DNA of 5,879 nucleotides from Escherichia coli (GTDB lineage Bacteria; Pseudomonadota; Gammaproteobacteria; Enterobacterales; Enterobacteriaceae), in assembly GCF_003334815.1 (NCBI RefSeq), contig NZ_QOWO01000072.1; one strand, written 5' to 3'. The translations under genes and the position numbers were made by a program. The notes under the pieces are model-generated. The model was not told the DNA's origin and made no database searches. It saw only the letters and a program-made list of their open reading frames with translations. Positions 1 to 5,879 of the stretch are shown piece by piece. Position 1 is the stretch's first letter; each line of letters starts with the position of its first letter.

Positions 1-40
1 TTCGTACTAATCGCTTCAATCCAAAGAACTTCACTTTTCC

Positions 41-77
41 TTAGCGTGTGTTATCGCAGAAATGCCCACGGAACCCC
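41..77. repeat. Left copy of an imperfect 37-bp inverted repeat (partner at 5803-5839)
   Basis: Hand alignment: reverse complement of 41-77 matches plus 5803-5839 at 34/37 positions. The repeat contains the last 8 codons and TAA stop (51-53) of the 51..248 ORF. Confidence 0.7.
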
Positions 78-248
78 GGTTTGGCGTTTCCCTGCCAATA
101 TTTGATAGCCAACCCAGAGGATATAAACGCTAATACCTGCACTTAGAAGAGATAACATATCTTGGCCTAATTGACTTTGAAGTGGTTTGGTCATCTCTTC
201 GATTTTACTAACAACTTCGCTATTAAACTTTTCAAAGAAACCAGACAT
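51..248 (-). CDS. 65-aa membrane ORF resembling the N-terminal segment of VirB6/TrbL-family proteins (possibly a truncated gene)
   Basis: ATG at 248 preceded by AGGTGA, 4 nt after the stop of the upstream lipoprotein gene. MSGFF... then one hydrophobic helix (LSLLSAGISVYILWVGYQIL) followed by AGKR, the usual start of VirB6-type proteins, but it stops at TAA 51-53 where canonical proteins continue for about 250 aa. Confidence 0.4.
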   Translation of the reverse strand: MSGFFEKFNSEVVSKIEEMTKPLQSQLGQDMLSLLSAGISVYILWVGYQILAGKRQTGVPWAFLR

Positions 249-252
249 GTTA

Positions 253-516
253 TCACCTGTTCAATCCATGTTGCTTATCATATTCAGCTGACTCAGCCTT
301 AAGTATTTCAAGCATAGGCCCATAGGTTCTACCAATAATTCCGGCAACTTTTTTAACATTTTGACAATTAACAGAGTCTTCCCCTGACTTTTTACACTCC
401 TTATATTTCTCCGTTGCTTCTTTGGGATGATTTAGCCACCAATCTGATGATTTTGTATCTTCACCACATGCGGAAAGAATAAAAATAGATATCAAGAGTG
501 TACAAATTTTTTTCAT
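253..516 (-). CDS. Small secreted lipoprotein (87 aa); position immediately upstream of a VirB6/TrbL-like ORF suggests a TrbK/entry-exclusion-like role
   Basis: N-terminal signal peptide MKKICTLLISIFILSAC with lipobox L-S-A-C; GAGGA Shine-Dalgarno 7 nt upstream of the ATG at 516; stop TGA at 253-255. Confidence 0.6.
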   Translation of the reverse strand: MKKICTLLISIFILSACGEDTKSSDWWLNHPKEATEKYKECKKSGEDSVNCQNVKKVAGIIGRTYGPMLEILKAESAEYDKQHGLNR

Positions 517-536
517 CTTTGATTCCTCGTATGGAC

Positions 537-578
537 ATTACAATTGCTGATGCAATCAGCAATTGTAATTTTTGTCAA
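537..578 (-). promoter_or_regulatory. Perfect palindrome (15-bp arms, 3-bp spacer) plus adjacent minus-strand TTGACA; candidate operator/promoter for the lipoprotein operon
   Basis: ATTACAATTGCTGAT-gca-ATCAGCAATTGTAAT at 537-569, 21 nt upstream of the ATG at 516. Minus-strand hexamer TTGACA at 578..573 immediately upstream. No clean -10 hexamer identified. Confidence 0.4.
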
Positions 579-617
579 CTAAAAAAAACACCTATTGCAT
601 TATGCTATTTTTTGCAA

Positions 618-902
618 TTAATCCGCTTCAAATCCAAAACGAATCTCTTTTATGTTCAAAAGCAATCTCAATAAGATCATCGGTCTTAACGATGAAGCTG
701 AAGCACAACTTAATTTAGCTCTTGCATTAAATAACTGCCCCTGAACTGTTCCCGGTGTTGTATTTCTAAAATAAGCTATTTCATCAATAGTAAATCCTAT
801 GCTGTATAAAATGGTCACGCTCTTTTCCGCATCGATTAATCCTTCATCGTCGTAAAAGATTTGATGAAGTTGAGAAATGCGTATAGCATCATGCTTAGTC
901 AT
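618..902 (-). CDS. Small helix-turn-helix DNA-binding protein (sigma-70 region-4 / KorA-like HTH)
   Basis: 94-aa ORF; AGAGG Shine-Dalgarno 6 nt upstream of the ATG at 902. Segment FTIDEIAYFRNTTPGTVQGQLFNARAKL fits the T-x-G-T-V HTH pattern. Lies 76 nt downstream of repA on the same strand. Confidence 0.5.
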   Translation of the reverse strand: MTKHDAIRISQLHQIFYDDEGLIDAEKSVTILYSIGFTIDEIAYFRNTTPGTVQGQLFNARAKLSCASASSLRPMILLRLLLNIKEIRFGFEAD

Positions 903-978
903 AATAACCTCTAGCCAGGTTGTTGTGATTAGCGGTTTGTCAGAGTTGCAACCTCTGGCAAATCGCGCCGATTAAATA

Positions 979-1728
979 TCAATTTTTTATAATCTTTGAT
1001 TGCTCATCTTTTTGAAACCAGAATTCAAGACGAACGACTTTTTTGCCTCTTTTTAATGGCTTCCACTGGATTATCCAATTATCTTTTTCGGTCAACTCTT
1101 TTACGGCAGGTTCTATCACCCTTTCTCTGAGTAATCCAAAGGTTTTTTTATAACTTTCAGGAGATTCCATTGCGTGATGAAAATCATCCAGCGATATAGA
1201 TAACCATCCGTTATTGTCTTTGTGGGTATTCATTTGCTCGAATAATTCAAGCAACCGCCATGAGTGAACAGAGCGCAGTCCGCAAGCCTGAGATAGCTGG
1301 TATTTAGTGAAATTTTCTTCCAGTTCGCATAGATAGGGGGTGACCTGTGGTGTGAAGCTCAAAACAACGTGCGCTTCACCTTCATTGTATTTATAAGCAC
1401 CTAACCATCTGATTTTCCAGACATCAACATCTGTTTCGCTTACTTCGTTTATTCTGAAGCTAATGTAGCGGTTAAAAAAATTGTCAGCAGCGATTTTTAA
1501 TTGTGAATACGCTTGTTTTAAAGGCATTCCAAATGTATTGGCGTATTCTTCAGCCGTGATTTTAATCGGGGTGTACTGTCCGCCCATTTTGGCTATTGCA
1601 GCAAAAATGATGCGTTTTTCAGCCAGTGACAGGCTTTGCGCTGCTCTCGTAATGGCATTGCTCATCACGATATTTTTCCCGCGCAGGTTCAAGGTCATGG
1701 TAATGGATTCAGTTTTTTTCCCTTTCAT
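979..1728 (-). CDS. repA: Rep_3-family iteron-binding replication initiator RepA
   Basis: Architecture matches pSC101/R6K-type initiators as remembered: NAITRAAQSLSLAEKRIIFAAIA (winged-helix 1), WKIRWLGAYKY...PYLCEL, SISLDDFHHAM...LEFWF. Preferred start is ATG 1728 (MKGKK, preceded by AGGCGGAGAG); the track ORF extends to 1782 and internal ATGs at 1698 and 1665 are alternatives. Stop TGA 979-981. Cognate iterons lie 130 bp upstream. Confidence 0.85.
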   Translation of the reverse strand: MKGKKTESITMTLNLRGKNIVMSNAITRAAQSLSLAEKRIIFAAIAKMGGQYTPIKITAEEYANTFGMPLKQAYSQLKIAADNFFNRYISFRINEVSETDVDVWKIRWLGAYKYNEGEAHVVLSFTPQVTPYLCELEENFTKYQLSQACGLRSVHSWRLLELFEQMNTHKDNNGWLSISLDDFHHAMESPESYKKTFGLLRERVIEPAVKELTEKDNWIIQWKPLKRGKKVVRLEFWFQKDEQSKIIKN

Positions 1729-1761
1729 CTCTCCGCCTAAATAGGTCAACTGGCACTTGGA

Positions 1762-1845
1762 AAAGTAACAGGTATCGGGCAACTGTAACGAAGATAAACG
1801 ATGTTATCGCACAAGTAAAGTAACATTGCTTGTTGCTGTTACTTT
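1762..1845 (-). promoter_or_regulatory. repA promoter/operator region with inverted iteron half-sites (candidate autoregulatory operator)
   Basis: Iteron core GTTACTTT occurs as AAAGTAAC at 1762-1769 and 1817-1824 and as GTTACTTT at 1838-1845. The pair 1817-1824 / 1838-1845 forms an inverted repeat with 13-bp spacer between the iterons and the repA start. Confidence 0.45.
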
Positions 1846-1849
1846 TGCC

Positions 1850-1858
1850 TGTGGATAT
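1850..1858. promoter_or_regulatory. DnaA box-like site (8/9 match)
   Basis: TGTGGATAT, reverse complement ATATCCACA versus consensus TTATCCACA; directly abuts the iteron array. Confidence 0.35.
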
Positions 1859-1860
1859 TG

Positions 1861-1944
1861 CCCGAAAAAAGTTACTTTTAACCCGAAAAAAGTTACTTTT
1901 AACCCGAAAAAAGTTACTTTTAACCCGAAAAAAGTTACTTTTAA
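1861..1944. repeat. Four tandem perfect 21-bp iterons (CCCGAAAAAAGTTACTTTTAA)
   Basis: Unit starts at 1861, 1882, 1903 and 1924; all four copies identical, contiguous, no spacers; located upstream of a Rep_3 initiator gene. Confidence 0.9.
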
Positions 1945-2040
1945 CGCTGTAACTTGATGATTCAAAAGAATTTCTAGCGACTAAAAAGGTTTTAAAAAAA
2001 AAGATAAAAAGGATTTAAAAAGGAATTTACCCCCAAAATC
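1945..2040. other. AT-rich, A-tract-phased region of the origin (candidate DNA unwinding/bending element)
   Basis: Strongly AT-rich by inspection; AAAAAGG recurs at 1983-1989, 2006-2012 and 2017-2023; flanked by iterons on one side and a perfect DnaA box on the other. Confidence 0.4.
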
Positions 2041-2049
2041 TGTGGATAA
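2041..2049. promoter_or_regulatory. DnaA box (perfect 9-mer)
   Basis: TGTGGATAA is the reverse complement of TTATCCACA; sits at the edge of the AT-rich origin region. Confidence 0.5.
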
Positions 2050-2156
2050 CTCTGCTTAAACCAAGAGGACAGATCACGTTACGTTAAGACAACAAACCTA
2101 ATAAACGACGCGCTCATTTTTTAACCGCTACGCGTAAGTGCTCAAATCAATACCTG

Positions 2157-2222
2157 CTCTCTTCCGCTTCCTCGCCCACTCGCTCACTAACGTTCGGTCG
2201 CTGGGGCTGCGGCGAGCGGTGC
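2157..2222. other. Segment resembling the ColE1/pBR322 primosome assembly (n'-type pas/ssi) region
   Basis: CTCTTCCGCTTCCTCGCCCACTCGCTCACTAACGTTCGGTCGCTGGGGCTGCGGCGAGCGGT is recognisably similar, from memory, to the pBR322 stretch CTCTTCCGCTTCCTCGCTCACTGACTCGCTGCGCTCGGTCGTTCGGCTGCGGCGAGCGGT. Lies about 110 bp from the oriV DnaA box in a GC-rich ORF-poor island. Confidence 0.3.
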
Positions 2223-2589
2223 CACCTCCCGCATGTTGTCGGTTATTCCGTTGCTGTACTGTTCGGAAATTCGTTCTGTGAGCCATCCAGAACACCAGAA
2301 CTCGATTTTCTGGTCCCGGTAATGGTATCCCACGTCTTAGCCCTTAAAACGCGCTCAGAAACTCTCTGAGGCGCTAAAATGCCAACAGATGCCCGTCAGG
2401 GCATGGAAGGTGCGAAAAACGCTTACAGAGGGTTTCAGGAGGCCAAGCGCGCCGATACCCCTAACCAGGGGCTTTCAGGTCGCTAAGAACCGCGTCAGCC
2501 CCCTGCAAAGCAAAAATTGCACGAAACAGGCAGCCACTCGGTTGGCAGGTGGTCGTAGACCGTCGATGTTGCAGCGATGATTGTATTAA

Positions 2590-2934
2590 TCATCTAATGC
2601 TATGGTTGGTGACTTCTTTTTCCAGAGCCTTATTAACAAAAGCATTCAACGATAAATCTTCTTCCATCGCCATTTCTGCTACCCGACGATGCAGTTCTGG
2701 ATCAAGCCTGACGTTAAACACGCCTTTAAACGGGATATCAGGTTCCTTTCCATCCTCCACACAAGACTGTAAATACAGATCAACCGATGTTTTAAACTCC
2801 TGTTCCAGTTCAGCTAATGTAGAAGCCTCATAAGTTACCAGGTCCCGAATAAACGCCAGTTTTCCATACAGGACATTATTTTCAAAATCGGGTTCAACTG
2901 TACCTAAATATCCTTTATATTTTAAATGTTTCAT
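2590..2934 (-). CDS. hicB: HicB-family antitoxin (N-terminal HicB fold plus C-terminal ribbon-helix-helix DNA-binding domain)
   Basis: 114 aa; C-terminal FNVRLDPELHRRVAEMAMEEDLSLNAFVNKALEKEV is a typical RHH segment of HicB antitoxins. Start ATG 2934 overlaps the hicA stop (ATGA at 2931-2934); stop TGA 2590-2592. Confidence 0.8.
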   Translation of the reverse strand: MKHLKYKGYLGTVEPDFENNVLYGKLAFIRDLVTYEASTLAELEQEFKTSVDLYLQSCVEDGKEPDIPFKGVFNVRLDPELHRRVAEMAMEEDLSLNAFVNKALEKEVTNHSIR

Positions 2935-3179
2935 AATAATCCGGCCTCTTTCAGATTCTGTTTAATCGCTTTCAGCGTACCACCTTTAATATAACTTTCC
3001 GGATGTGGGCGATGCATTAATATGGTGTGGTTGATATCAGCATTGAAAAACCGCACTCTTGACCCCTGCATTTCTTTTTTGACATATCCCAAAGAGGAAA
3101 ACAAAACGACCAGTTCATCCCATTCAAACGTTTTTTTGCTGTTTAAAAACTTCGCCAGTAGTTTATCTGTTTTTCCCAT
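2931..3179 (-). CDS. hicA: HicA-family toxin (mRNA interferase)
   Basis: 82 aa; GSRVRFFNADINHTILMHRPHPESYIKGGTLKAIKQNLKEAGLL resembles the E. coli HicA core (GSNH...PRHP...LRKAILKQLGL, remembered). GGGGAG Shine-Dalgarno 3 nt upstream of the ATG at 3179; toxin-first order typical of hicAB. Confidence 0.75.
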   Translation of the reverse strand: MGKTDKLLAKFLNSKKTFEWDELVVLFSSLGYVKKEMQGSRVRFFNADINHTILMHRPHPESYIKGGTLKAIKQNLKEAGLL

Positions 3180-3193
3180 ACGCTCCCCTTGTT

Positions 3194-3229
3194 TGTAACT
3201 AATTATAGTTACAGTGTTGTTTTTGTCAA
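3194..3229 (-). promoter_or_regulatory. Consensus sigma70 promoter for hicAB with overlapping palindromic operator
   Basis: Minus strand: -35 TTGACA (3229..3224), 16-bp spacer, -10 TATAAT (3207..3202), about 23 nt upstream of the hicA ATG. Palindrome TGTAACT-aattat-AGTTACA (3194-3213) overlaps the -10. Confidence 0.55.
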
Positions 3230-3320
3230 ACGTGCCCTCAATGGAACATTTGAGCAGAAACTAAAGCTTGGAGACTCCCAAAATTAGAGAGGAATTACTT
3301 AAAGGCTGCAAAGAACCAAT

Positions 3321-3368
3321 GCAGGATAGACAATCCGATGTCAAATGGTACCATTCGATATCGGATTG
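3321..3368 (-). other. Candidate oriT: near-perfect 38-bp palindrome followed on the minus strand by a TATCCTG|C nick-like motif
   Basis: CAATCCGAT-gtca-AATGGTACCATT-cgat-ATCGGATTG at 3331-3368. On the minus strand the motif TATCCTGC (3328..3321) follows 2 nt after the repeat and fits the MOB_P-type nick consensus YATCCTG|Y. Lies in the divergent intergenic region next to a MobC-like gene. Confidence 0.35.
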
Positions 3369-3419
3369 TCCAAAAACAGGGTTTTTGCCTGTGCCTGCCG
3401 CAGGCTCTATGGAGTGAAG

Positions 3420-3923
3420 ATGAAACAGATAAAATTCAGACTTAGTGGTGATGAGTTAAAACTTGCAGAACATAACGCGATTTCAAGTGGATTTTCCAGT
3501 ATCAATACATTTGCCAGACATAATGTGCTTAACATTGAAACTAAGCCTGTTAATATCCCAGTTAATAATGAACCAGCAAAGCTGGTATCAGTGCGCCTTT
3601 ACCCTCATGAAATAGAACTTGTTAAACGTAATGCTGCCCTTCACGGCATGAGCATGAGCAGAGAAATTGCTATTCGTGTGCGTCAGTCTTTGTTAAAGAA
3701 TGAAGTCTGTCTTTACCCTGATGAAGTTAAGGAACTTAAAAAACTATCAACTGCTGTAGATCGTGTTGGTCGCAACATTCATTTTATCATAAAAGGTGAA
3801 AGATTCTGCACGGTTAACGATCCAGATTTCAGAAAAGACGTTATTGAAGTGATTGAACTGTGTAAGCAAATTGATTCAAAACTTGAAACGTTAACCAAGA
3901 GTGTTGTTAACAGATTTGGTTAA
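3420..3923 (+). CDS. MobC-like relaxosome accessory protein (tandem ribbon-helix-helix segments)
   Basis: 167 aa from ATG 3420, with GGAG 7 nt upstream; the track ORF start at 3345 lies inside the palindrome and is rejected. Two RHH-like segments (IKFRLSGDELKLAEHNAISSGF; KLVSVRLYPHEIELVKRNAALHGMSMSREIAIRV) and C-terminal LKKLSTAVDRVGRNIHFIIKG resembling the MobC L..L...R.G.N motif. Stop TAA 3921-3923. Confidence 0.45.
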   Translation: MKQIKFRLSGDELKLAEHNAISSGFSSINTFARHNVLNIETKPVNIPVNNEPAKLVSVRLYPHEIELVKRNAALHGMSMSREIAIRVRQSLLKNEVCLYPDEVKELKKLSTAVDRVGRNIHFIIKGERFCTVNDPDFRKDVIEVIELCKQIDSKLETLTKSVVNRFG

Positions 3924-3929
3924 AATCAA

Positions 3930-3948
3930 GGCCATCAAATAGATGGCC
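3930..3948 (-). terminator. Hairpin between convergent genes; likely intrinsic terminator for the minus-strand VirB5-like operon
   Basis: GGCCATC-aaata-GATGGCC (7-bp stem, 5-nt loop). On the minus strand it is followed by TTGATTTTA (U-rich); on the plus strand the downstream tract is not U-rich. Confidence 0.4.
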
Positions 3949-3955
3949 CTAGCTG

Positions 3956-4258
3956 TTATCTCATCGTAAATCGCATTACGATTAATAACAGAAGTAAAAT
4001 ACAAAACAGCTTCAACGTAAAAAGGAGTCTTTCTTTTATACCACCGCTGGGAACAAACCTCTTTTCAATTCTATCAGTGATAAATTGCAATGTGCCATAA
4101 TACATAAAAGCATTAACCAGCTTTAACGTAAGCTCCATACTTAAAACAATAACTATTATTGGTAGAGATATTAACAGTGGCGGCGGTGTAGAACCGGTAC
4201 TATTCAATCTAGACCAATGATTATCTACCCATTCTTTTAGCTTATTTAGCTTTATCAT
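3956..4258 (-). CDS. Small integral membrane protein (100 aa, two hydrophobic helices); entry-exclusion-like by position after the VirB5-like gene
   Basis: ATG at 4258 lies 1 nt after the VirB5-like stop (TGAtATG); the track ORF's longer N-terminus overlaps the upstream gene. Hydrophobic stretches PLLISLPIIVIVLSMELTL and LLFTLKLFCILLLLLIVMRF. No family recognised. Confidence 0.45.
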   Translation of the reverse strand: MIKLNKLKEWVDNHWSRLNSTGSTPPPLLISLPIIVIVLSMELTLKLVNAFMYYGTLQFITDRIEKRFVPSGGIKERLLFTLKLFCILLLLLIVMRFTMR

Positions 4259-4259
4259 A

Positions 4260-4973
4260 TCATTCGAAACTCGGTATTTTGGCATTTTTCTGACGTAAAC
4301 GATACTCTGCATACTTTTGTTCTTTCAACATTTCCGCATCAGCCCTGTTTTTACTATCCCATACATCATACTGCATTTTAATTGCCTGTATTTTTAACGA
4401 CTGAGCCTGTAATGCGTTAGCTAAATCCTGGGATTCCTTCATATCCTTTGAAGACTCAATTCGGCTACTTAAACTCTGAATCTGAGACATTGCACTTGAT
4501 AGCTGCTTATTTATCTCATTTCCCTGTTCAATGCTGGCGGCCGTTGAAACTATTCTGGCCTTACAAAGGTTATCAGAACTTTCAATGCCTGTATTACACA
4601 TATCAAACGCTCCATACTTACTGAACAGATTTTTAGCCTGGCTGCTTAATGCACCTTCGGGATTACTGGTAAAATCAGAAATATAACTGTTCCCCTGCTT
4701 ATAAATGTTTGCCAACTCTGATTGCAGGTTACTTAGTTCATTTGTGAATGCCGCAATATTCCTTATACCTGTTGCCGTGGCTAACTGGTCTTTATATGCC
4801 TGAATCTGACTTTGATAATGCCGCGCTGTTTCAGACCATTGTTTGAGTCGTTCTGTCCATCTTGTGGCTTCAATGGCCCATTCCGGACTGGCATCAATAG
4901 CAACCGGAATACCTGCGACAGAACCAAATGAAAATAAGCACAAAAGTACTGAAAAAATTAGTTTTTTGTTCAT
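4260..4973 (-). CDS. VirB5/TrbJ-family type IV secretion minor pilus protein
   Basis: 237 aa; signal peptide MNKKLIFSVLLCLFSFGSVAG, then GIPVAID and a Gln-rich coiled-coil stretch (QSQIQAYKDQLATATGIR) as in VirB5/TrbJ proteins. Strong GAGGAG Shine-Dalgarno; start overlaps the upstream gene's stop (ATGA at 4970-4973). Confidence 0.7.
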   Translation of the reverse strand: MNKKLIFSVLLCLFSFGSVAGIPVAIDASPEWAIEATRWTERLKQWSETARHYQSQIQAYKDQLATATGIRNIAAFTNELSNLQSELANIYKQGNSYISDFTSNPEGALSSQAKNLFSKYGAFDMCNTGIESSDNLCKARIVSTAASIEQGNEINKQLSSAMSQIQSLSSRIESSKDMKESQDLANALQAQSLKIQAIKMQYDVWDSKNRADAEMLKEQKYAEYRLRQKNAKIPSFE

Positions 4974-5710
4974 GCTGAACTCCTCGCACGTGCTTTTTCC
5001 AGGGATGCTCGTCTTCTTGCTTCCATTCCCAATGCGCCTGTTGAAGCCCGTTTCTGCTCCACTTTTTCACCTGCCCATTCGGCGGCTGTTTGCGTTCCCC
5101 GTTTCATTTGGTTTCTCGTTTTCTCTACGGCCATCCCAGCAGCCCCAATCCCTAAAAGAGCCATTCCCTGAAGAGTACCTTCGACACCTGCACCAGCAAG
5201 CTGCTGCGCGAAACTCGATGATTTCCAGACAAAGACAGCAATCAGAACTCCAATTACAAATGCCATTGCGCCCATTGTTAAAATATTTGTTGAGTTAGCA
5301 TCTCTCGATATCTGACTAAGCATATCAGTTTGAAACTCAGTACCAATTTTGACGAGAACTCCTGCAAAAATAACAGTAAATACACTAGAAAATAATATAC
5401 CAAGCCAGTTATTAAACATTACTCTGGTGAATCCAAACATATGACAACCGATAAATATCGGAGCTACAAGAATAGCTAACTGCATTGTTACATCGGCAAG
5501 CATGTAAATAACAGCCGCTACAGACATAATCAGGATGCTTCCTCCCCAAACCAACATTGAACCGATCCCACCCTCAACTGACACATATTTGGATTGATCC
5601 ATAGCATAAACTTTGTCTGCCAAAAGCTGAGTTGTACTCCACATGGTATCTAGCGTTGCCCATACAGGTTTACCAAGGAACCCATCCTTCATAGATTTAA
5701 TAGCATCCAT
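4970..5710 (-). CDS. VirB6/TrbL-family polytopic inner-membrane protein, lacking the canonical N-terminal segment (possibly N-terminally truncated)
   Basis: 246 aa with 4-5 hydrophobic helices and a charged C-terminal tail. APIFIGCHMFGFTRVMFNNWLGILF matches the conserved VirB6 P-x-F-I...TR..F..W block (remembered from Brucella/Agrobacterium VirB6). The frame is open upstream to TGA 5861-5863 with no ATG/GTG/TTG before ATG 5710, and the ribosome-binding site is weak. Confidence 0.7.
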   Translation of the reverse strand: MDAIKSMKDGFLGKPVWATLDTMWSTTQLLADKVYAMDQSKYVSVEGGIGSMLVWGGSILIMSVAAVIYMLADVTMQLAILVAPIFIGCHMFGFTRVMFNNWLGILFSSVFTVIFAGVLVKIGTEFQTDMLSQISRDANSTNILTMGAMAFVIGVLIAVFVWKSSSFAQQLAGAGVEGTLQGMALLGIGAAGMAVEKTRNQMKRGTQTAAEWAGEKVEQKRASTGALGMEARRRASLEKARARSSA

Positions 5711-5802
5711 TGCTGCCGTCAGATAGCCATCAGCATTGCTTACGAATGTTAAAATAATGGCAAATTTTGATAGGTCCCAAACGAGATCTTGTAATGGGGT
5801 TT

Positions 5803-5839
5803 GGGGCTCCGTGGGAATTTCTGCGATAACACCCGCTAA
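5803..5839. repeat. Right copy of the imperfect 37-bp inverted repeat (partner at 41-77); an inverted, degenerate copy of the 3' end of the 51..248 ORF
   Basis: Plus 5758-5829 translates to WQILIGPKRDLVMGFGAPWEFLR-stop, versus YQILAGKRQTGVPWAFLR-stop at the C-terminus of the 51..248 ORF (encoded on the opposite strand). Nucleotide identity is 34/37 in the core. Confidence 0.7.
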
Positions 5840-5849
5840 GCGATTTCTC

Positions 5850-5879
5850 CCTGACGGAAATCACTTGTTTTCCGTCAGG
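5850..5879. repeat. Perfect hairpin/inverted repeat at the right window edge (11-bp stem, 8-nt loop)
   Basis: CCTGACGGAAA-tcacttgt-TTTCCGTCAGG; the stem contains the in-frame TGA (5861-5863) that closes the upstream extension of the VirB6-like reading frame. Downstream context is beyond the window. Confidence 0.5.

Follow-up and report, generated by a model that had tools for sequence, protein, structure and literature searches.

The locus described here raises the question whether a long palindrome adjoining a sequence of the type cut by MOB_P relaxases is an origin of transfer (oriT) or only the operator of the neighbouring gene. The palindrome lies between the divergent genes hicA and taxA in a stretch of 5,879 nucleotides from Escherichia coli (contig NZ_QOWO01000072.1), referred to below as the window. 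A preliminary description of this DNA had proposed a candidate oriT and had named the operator as the alternative.

The plasmid that carries the locus

Positions 78–5804 of the window correspond with 100% identity to the circular Salmonella plasmid LR792480.1 (5718 bp), and a 5720-bp E. coli plasmid is a second close match (98.7%). This plasmid of ~5.7 kb is a mosaic of IncX4-like pieces. Its genes that bear on the locus are:

On the window plasmid: pilX5-like and pilX6-like genes, an EexN lipoprotein gene and an actX-like regulator gene, all IncX4-like
979–1782, minus strand: rep, iteron-type
2590–3179, minus strand: hicBA
2931–3179, minus strand: hicA, as called in the preliminary description
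3420–3923, plus strand: taxA (ddp1), relaxosome accessory protein (equivalog of NCBIfam NF041451, DDP1; 232 bits, cutoff 150)

The two ends of the window (1–77 and 5803–5879) belong to a Tn3-family transposon and represent its inverted-repeat ends, GGGG(T/C)TCCGTGGG(C/A)ATTTCTGCGATAACAC..., and the source replicon is thus the 5.7-kb plasmid plus a transposon. The same transposon in CP043759.1 is about 3.8 kb long and includes a Tn3-family transposase. The insertion lies in the pilX6/virB6-like gene and is marked by a 5-bp duplication, GGTTT, at 78–82 and 5798–5802. Upstream of rep, four perfect 21-bp direct repeats of CCCGAAAAAAGTTACTTTTAA (1861–1945) are presumably the iterons of the replication origin. 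The hicA promoter is a perfect sigma-70 consensus on the minus strand, TTGACA-16-TATAAT (3229–3202), and is overlapped by an 8-bp inverted repeat, TGTAACTA/TAGTTACA (3194–3213), the probable HicB operator. Between the eexN-like and actX-like genes, at 537–569, lies a perfect inverted repeat of 15 bp with a 3-nt spacer, ATTACAATTGCTGAT/ATCAGCAATTGTAAT.

Among these genes taxA is the sole relaxosome gene. The window contains no open reading frame for a relaxase, and hence no cognate MOB_P relaxase beside the putative oriT; none is annotated on the sister plasmid (L001), and a coupling protein is absent from the gene set of the window plasmid. Since the plasmid lacks a relaxase, an oriT on it can only work with a helper.

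The nick motif and the IR1 palindrome

The locus is part of a conserved module of ~93 bp (3316–3408), the elements of which are as follows (a slash within a nick sequence marks the predicted nick):

3316–3328, minus strand: nick region, 5'-CTATCCTG/CATTG-3'
3327–3354, plus strand: promoter-like element TAGACA-16 nt-TG-n-TACCAT, a prediction from a consensus scan (9/12, with extended −10 TG)
3329–3370, no strand: IR1, a 42-bp compound palindrome with outer arms GACAATCCGAT and ATCGGATTGTC around the inner palindrome AATGGTACCATT
3371–3387, no strand: IR2, a small hairpin CAAAAAC-AGG-GTTTTTG, kept in all full-length IncX4-type copies
3387–3407, no strand: GC-rich block GCCTGTGCCTGCCGCAGGCTC, the right-hand edge of the conserved module

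The nick-type motif reported in the preliminary description is present. The plus-strand sequence GCAGGATA at 3321–3328 reads TATCCTGC on the minus strand, which agrees with the nick-region consensus of MOB_P relaxases, (C/T)ATCCTG(C/T) (PMC3772185), and is its sole match within the window. By itself the 8-mer is uninformative, because YATCCTGY occurs at the chance level: over both strands there is one match against 0.54 expected, and at least one was found in 87 of 200 shuffled sequences. The caution expressed earlier about the motif taken alone was thus well placed. Its conservation is a separate matter. The sequence CAATGCAGGATAG is unchanged in all 11 plasmid copies compared and in each of the 18 palindrome variants, the nick block CAATGCAGGATAGACA is constant across the same 18 variants, and the 11-nt sequence ATGCAGGATAG is common to the window, R6K, IncX1 and IncX3. 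By analogy to RP4, the predicted nick falls on the minus strand within TATCCTG/C, between G (3322) and C (3321); this position rests on the MOB_P consensus. A limited literature search found no experimentally mapped IncX4-type oriT or nick.

The palindrome next to the motif is likewise real, but its dimensions differ from those first given: it is 42 rather than 38 bp long, and it abuts the motif with a gap of 0 rather than 2 nt. Within it, the outer arms described earlier, CAATCCGAT (3331–3339) and ATCGGATTG (3360–3368), and the perfect inner palindrome (3344–3355) were found as stated. The two arms of the full repeat (3329–3349 and 3350–3370) comprise 21 nt each, are complementary at 19 of 21 positions (90%) and have no spacer, making IR1 the longest inverted repeat of the window. 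A zero-spacer palindrome pairing at 19/21 is expected 4.7e-6 times in the window, and the best of 100 shuffled sequences reached 15/21. On the minus strand, IR1 (3370 to 3329) is followed directly by TATCCTG/C, which places the predicted nick 7 nt from the hairpin. Folded as single-stranded DNA, IR1 yields a hairpin of −14.3 kcal/mol (z −5.3) that ends immediately 5' of TATCCTG. A hairpin ending directly 5' of TATCCTG/C was obtained for the window and R6K, for three IncX4/IncX7 variants and for another MobP1 plasmid, with z scores of −3.7 to −6.9.

The variability of IR1 was examined with a pattern scan of metagenomes, which returned 57 distinct segments. A segment was kept only if it had the complete CAATGCAGGATAGACA...GTCCAAAAAC frame; the segments left out included chance matches without flanking similarity. 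The plasmid copies and the filtered metagenome variants together gave 18 distinct palindrome sequences. Across these variants, 13 of the 21 IR1 pairs show changes on both sides, and 90% of the cells are paired, versus 28–44% when the partners are slid by 1–3 columns; none of 500 shuffles reached the observed value. Folding thus suggests that IR1 would form a hairpin in the transferred single strand, and IR1 is a probable recognition site of TaxA and/or TaxC. However, a dimeric binding protein can co-evolve with a palindrome, and covariation alone does not prove a hairpin role. Both a hairpin role and the binding of a dimeric protein are normal at transfer origins.

The remainder of the module

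IR2 is also seen in the single-stranded fold, and in one variant (L065) it reads CGAAAAC...GTTTTCG, altered on both sides. The GC block contains the palindrome GCCTGC-C-GCAGGC (3393–3405) and is nearly invariant in the alignment of plasmid copies, including the 2.1-kb Col(BS512) plasmids; it could be a site for a relaxosome protein or belong to the taxA leader. Folding of the minus strand over the full module yields three hairpins (−25.3 kcal/mol, z −6.7), of which the largest is followed immediately on its 3' side by the nick motif. The promoter-like element lies within the stretch formed by the nick region and IR1 and is directed toward taxA, and its TAGACA hexamer belongs to the invariant block. 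An Rfam scan of the whole window returned no family.

TaxA and the cognate relaxase

The gene downstream of the module, described earlier as MobC-like, does encode a relaxosome accessory protein, but the protein is TaxA/DDP1 (NF041451) and not MobC; a Pfam scan of TaxA gave no MobC family match. The site therefore has the adjacent taxA (ddp1) of an IncX-family oriT. The window TaxA is 94.6% identical to the TaxA of IncX4. Weak Pfam matches to NikA-like sequences (residues 2–41 and 54–81; E about 0.004, below Pfam significance), to Arc (62–94) and to DUF6290 suggest that TaxA may be a tandem ribbon-helix-helix protein. It is the likely binder of IR1, and the location of the promoter-like element inside IR1 makes a second, autoregulatory role of the palindrome likely.

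The cognate relaxase had been assigned to MOB_P from the nick motif, which agrees with the protein itself: IncX4 TaxC matches the NCBIfam MobP1 model with 404 bits. Transposon sequencing identified taxA, taxC and taxB as essential for IncX4 conjugation, the determinants of which are said to remain largely unknown (PMC8725589).

Distribution of the module

The segment 3298–3410 was compared with the plasmids in PLSDB and is kept at 77–93% identity in 732 of them, typed by MOB-suite as conjugative (449), non-mobilizable (266) and mobilizable (17). In conjugative IncX4 and IncX7 plasmids the module is located directly upstream of taxA-taxC. IncX4 plasmids carry a second copy, which adjoins rep and stands in front of an unrelated 175-aa gene, and such a repeated segment, upstream of taxA and beside rep/ddp3, occurs in the IncX4 relatives, R6K and IncX3. 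The window itself has one copy. The same layout has been published for IncX plasmids, with two oriTs within long inverted repeats, one near taxC and one near rep (PMC3402527; PMC3332091).

The module also occurs in plasmids that have neither taxA nor a relaxase, namely a Col(MG828) plasmid of 1565 bp, Col(BS512) plasmids of 2.1 kb, where it is partly rearranged, and a 4237-bp RepL plasmid with two copies. Its retention there argues for a cis-acting site that is selected for itself. Across unrelated backbones the similarity begins exactly at CAATG, 5 nt past the predicted nick, and stops just after GCAGGCTC, that is, after the GC block. Such limits, together with the occurrence apart from the genes, are those expected of a self-sufficient cis-acting site and not of a gene's private operator.

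Function of the module and alternative explanations

Taken together, these data indicate with a probability of roughly 85% that 3316–3408 is an IncX4-type oriT of the MOB_P class, on a relaxase-less plasmid of ~5.7 kb. The candidate oriT of the preliminary description is supported by the conservation of the module upstream of taxA-taxC, by its duplication beside rep, and by R6K, in which the same nick motif is abutted by a hairpin. The pattern of evidence fits a finding already known in kind, an IncX or MOB_P oriT, of which this is an IncX4-type member.

In the mechanism envisaged, TaxA, encoded immediately downstream, would bind the 42-bp IR1 as a ribbon-helix-helix oligomer and help to load IncX4 TaxC, which would be given in trans by a co-resident IncX4 conjugative plasmid. 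TaxC would cut the minus strand at TATCCTG/C (3322/3321), 7 nt 3' of the IR1 hairpin, and stay on the 5' C. The minus strand would then move 5' to 3', so that the hicAB and rep side would enter first and taxA and IR1 last. In the recipient, the reconstituted hairpin and nick sequence would be the signal for the closing strand-transfer reaction. TaxA binding probably also represses taxA, the promoter-like element lying in the nick region and IR1. As judged from the sequence, the window plasmid could be mobilised by an IncX4 helper in this way.

The operator named as the alternative in the preliminary description would make IR1 a binding site for TaxA over the taxA promoter and nothing else, with ATCCTG a coincidence and the real oriT, if any, elsewhere. 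Several observations point in this direction: the promoter-like TAGACA-16-TGnTACCAT lies inside the palindrome and faces taxA, ribbon-helix-helix proteins such as TaxA typically bind palindromes, the 60 N-terminal residues of TaxA vary loosely in step with the inner half-site of IR1, the nick 8-mer by itself occurs at the chance level, and there is a precedent in RA3 MobC, which according to the title of PMC4175270 autoregulates mobC-nic. However, the entire module with an invariant nick motif is retained in plasmids without taxA, for which an operator-only role is an insufficient explanation, and also at the rep-proximal site before an unrelated gene. Furthermore, just ATGCAGGATAG is conserved across all IncX subgroups while the palindrome diverges, the opposite of what an operator should show. 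An operator as the sole role is thus very unlikely; an operator as a second role of the oriT is what the promoter-like element makes likely. The site may instead be an oriT by descent that is inactive here, a relic left with other IncX4 debris after loss of the relaxase. This would agree with the mosaic of IncX4 fragments (pilX5/pilX6, eex remnants and the actX-like gene) without taxC, with the typing of the relatives of the window plasmid as non-mobilizable by MOB-suite, and with the sister plasmid, which combines the window palindrome with a TaxA N-terminus usual for another type. No IncX4 helper is listed for the host of the sister plasmid, a result that is uninformative rather than negative. 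Against decay, the nick motif, the three inverted repeats and the taxA frame are all intact, and the module is kept in minimal plasmids of 1.5–2.1 kb, where dead DNA is unlikely to persist. In addition, close relatives of the 5.7-kb plasmid from gut metagenomes have intact palindromes of other types, suggesting that a working site is still being selected and exchanged. There is accordingly only a slight chance that the site is a relic.

An element linked to replication, either a priming signal of the ssi type or part of an alpha/beta-type origin, would account for the three consecutive hairpins in one strand (z −6.7), for the second copy adjoining rep in IncX plasmids and for the position of the R6K long inverted repeats beside the alpha and beta origins; R6K is also known to carry ssi signals. 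However, the invariant part of the module is the MOB_P nick consensus and not the hairpin, and the orientation relative to taxA-taxC is always the same. The module also moves among unrelated replicons, namely Col(MG828), Col(BS512), RepL and the iteron Rep of the window, and the literature gives these repeats oriT function (PMC3402527; PMC3332091). A replication element is consequently extremely improbable, and the IncX4-type oriT is retained as the explanation of the module.

Types of IR1 and their possible meaning

Contigs from gut metagenomes (L035, L018, L090 and L072) that are 96–98% identical to the 5.7-kb plasmid have other palindrome types, indicating an exchange of the oriT within a single backbone. 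The 4237-bp RepL plasmids (L006; also L016, L017, L034 and L048) carry two modules of different palindrome types, at 3089–3190 and 1738–1827 in L006, with types such as ...GTCAAATGTTAACATTT... and ...TAGAAATTGCATGCAATTT.... Two oriT types on one small plasmid may be a way to use several helpers. Both copies could be compared in four conjugative plasmids (L002, L023, L032/L033 and L040/L041), and in these they form matched or near-matched pairs. The 60 N-terminal residues of TaxA follow the inner half-site of IR1 loosely, with L001 as an exception, in a sample that is small and uncorrected for phylogeny.

A tentative proposal, which we regard as possible but doubtful, is that IR1 is the specificity code of IncX4-type oriTs. 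The variable inner half-sites would be read by the variable N-terminal ribbon-helix-helix of TaxA, and relaxase-less plasmids would widen their range of helpers by swapping IR1 or by carrying two oriT types. If so, several hundred plasmids typed as 'non-mobilizable', including mcr-1 carriers, would be mobilisable, and the subset of IncX4 helpers able to mobilise each could be predicted.

Pinning down the IncX4-type oriT would correct mobility predictions for the 266 carriers typed as 'non-mobilizable', and the ~93-bp module would be a sequence marker for plasmids able to hitch-hike on IncX4 conjugation. It would also serve in experiments as a compact cis-acting cassette. In biological terms, the combination of a MOB_P nick site with an adjacent hairpin and accessory gene is textbook and will not surprise a specialist.

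Comparison with known transfer origins

The closest known counterparts are oriT-alpha and oriT-beta of R6K (IncX2), for which two functional oriTs within the long inverted repeats are cited (PMC3402527 and PMC3332091, citing Avila 1996). R6K contains two 111-bp copies in which ACTGCGATGCAGGATA is followed by GGGCAAACG...CGTTTGCCC and which run into the start codons of taxA and ddp3; IncX1 and IncX3 are built in the same manner. Like the window module, the R6K, IncX1 and IncX3 sites lie directly upstream of taxA, and they share with it ATGCAGGATAG, the zero-gap hairpin and an inner AAATG-N4-CATT palindrome. The relaxase and accessory proteins belong to the same families, TaxC and TaxA, as those of the IncX4 type. 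In contrast, R6K, IncX1 and IncX3 have a second copy upstream of a ddp3-like gene by rep, whereas the window has the single copy and, unlike them, no TaxC. The hairpin arms are unrelated (GGGCAAACG... in R6K, GACAATCC... in the window), as is the stretch from the hairpin to the taxA start, where R6K is without IR2 and the GC block. The window TaxA is only about 26% identical to that of IncX3. Beyond ATGCAGGATAG, the inner motif and the layout, no BLAST-level similarity between the IncX4-type module and the R6K oriT was detected.

A metagenomic hybrid (L087, 2227–2320, minus strand of the locus) combines an R6K-like nick flank and hairpin, GCGATGCAGGATAGGGCGAGCG...AAATGACGTCATTT...GCATTTGCCC, with a right-hand block of the IncX4 type, AAAACAGAATGTTTTCTCCTGAGCCTGCCGCTGGCTC, and suggests common descent of the R6K and IncX4 oriT types. 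In the 33.9-kb MobP1 plasmid RCS29_pII (L010, 1234–1290), a compound hairpin built around an inner palindrome, CAAATGTGCACATTTG, comes immediately after GCAGGATA, and both lie upstream of a TaxA-like gene. The architecture thus reaches beyond the named IncX groups.

A paper based on oriTfinder assigns the IncX4 'oriT-like region' to another place, the interval that separates taxC from the following gene (PMC6287198). The repeat reported there, GCAGGTGAGCAAAG..., was found in an IncX4 plasmid (L002, 6079–6092) between taxC and the actX-like gene. The IncX4 homology of the window stops at ~936, about where this repeat would lie; the exact repeat is absent from the window, and the region was rejected as a functional site here. 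A Xer-type resolution site was also dropped, as in our judgement the locus bears no resemblance to the cer-type core.

In RP4 (IncP-1alpha) the accessory gene traJ is adjacent to oriT and has its promoter inside it, and the relaxase operon enters the recipient last. The RP4 oriT has the identical nick 8-mer, TATCCTG/C, and on its nicked strand an inverted repeat precedes nic closely on the 5' side (PMC3772185). Past the 8-mer, however, RP4 and the window have no sequence similarity, and homology between their accessory proteins cannot be demonstrated. Compared with the RP4 repeat, IR1 has about double the length and is compound, and it adjoins the motif directly, so that 7 nt separate the hairpin from the predicted nick.

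The MOB_P oriT of R64 (IncI1) is recognised by a ribbon-helix-helix accessory protein, NikA, and small plasmids of the pCERC7 type carry oriT and nikA only and borrow the relaxase from a large conjugative plasmid. The window plasmid differs from the R64 system in oriT sequence and in helper group, and its TaxA has two tandem ribbon-helix-helix-like segments. Relaxase-less 'pOriT' plasmids, as described in the survey by Ares-Arroyo et al., are transferred with the relaxase and pilus that a conjugative plasmid provides (PMC10123127). The survey includes an 'R6K-like' oriT family and matched known oriTs at >80% identity (PMC10123127); the IncX4-type module, which shares just 11 nt with R6K, was therefore probably missed. 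The window plasmid follows the same concept as these pOriT plasmids, in which the oriT is carried alone and the machinery is borrowed.
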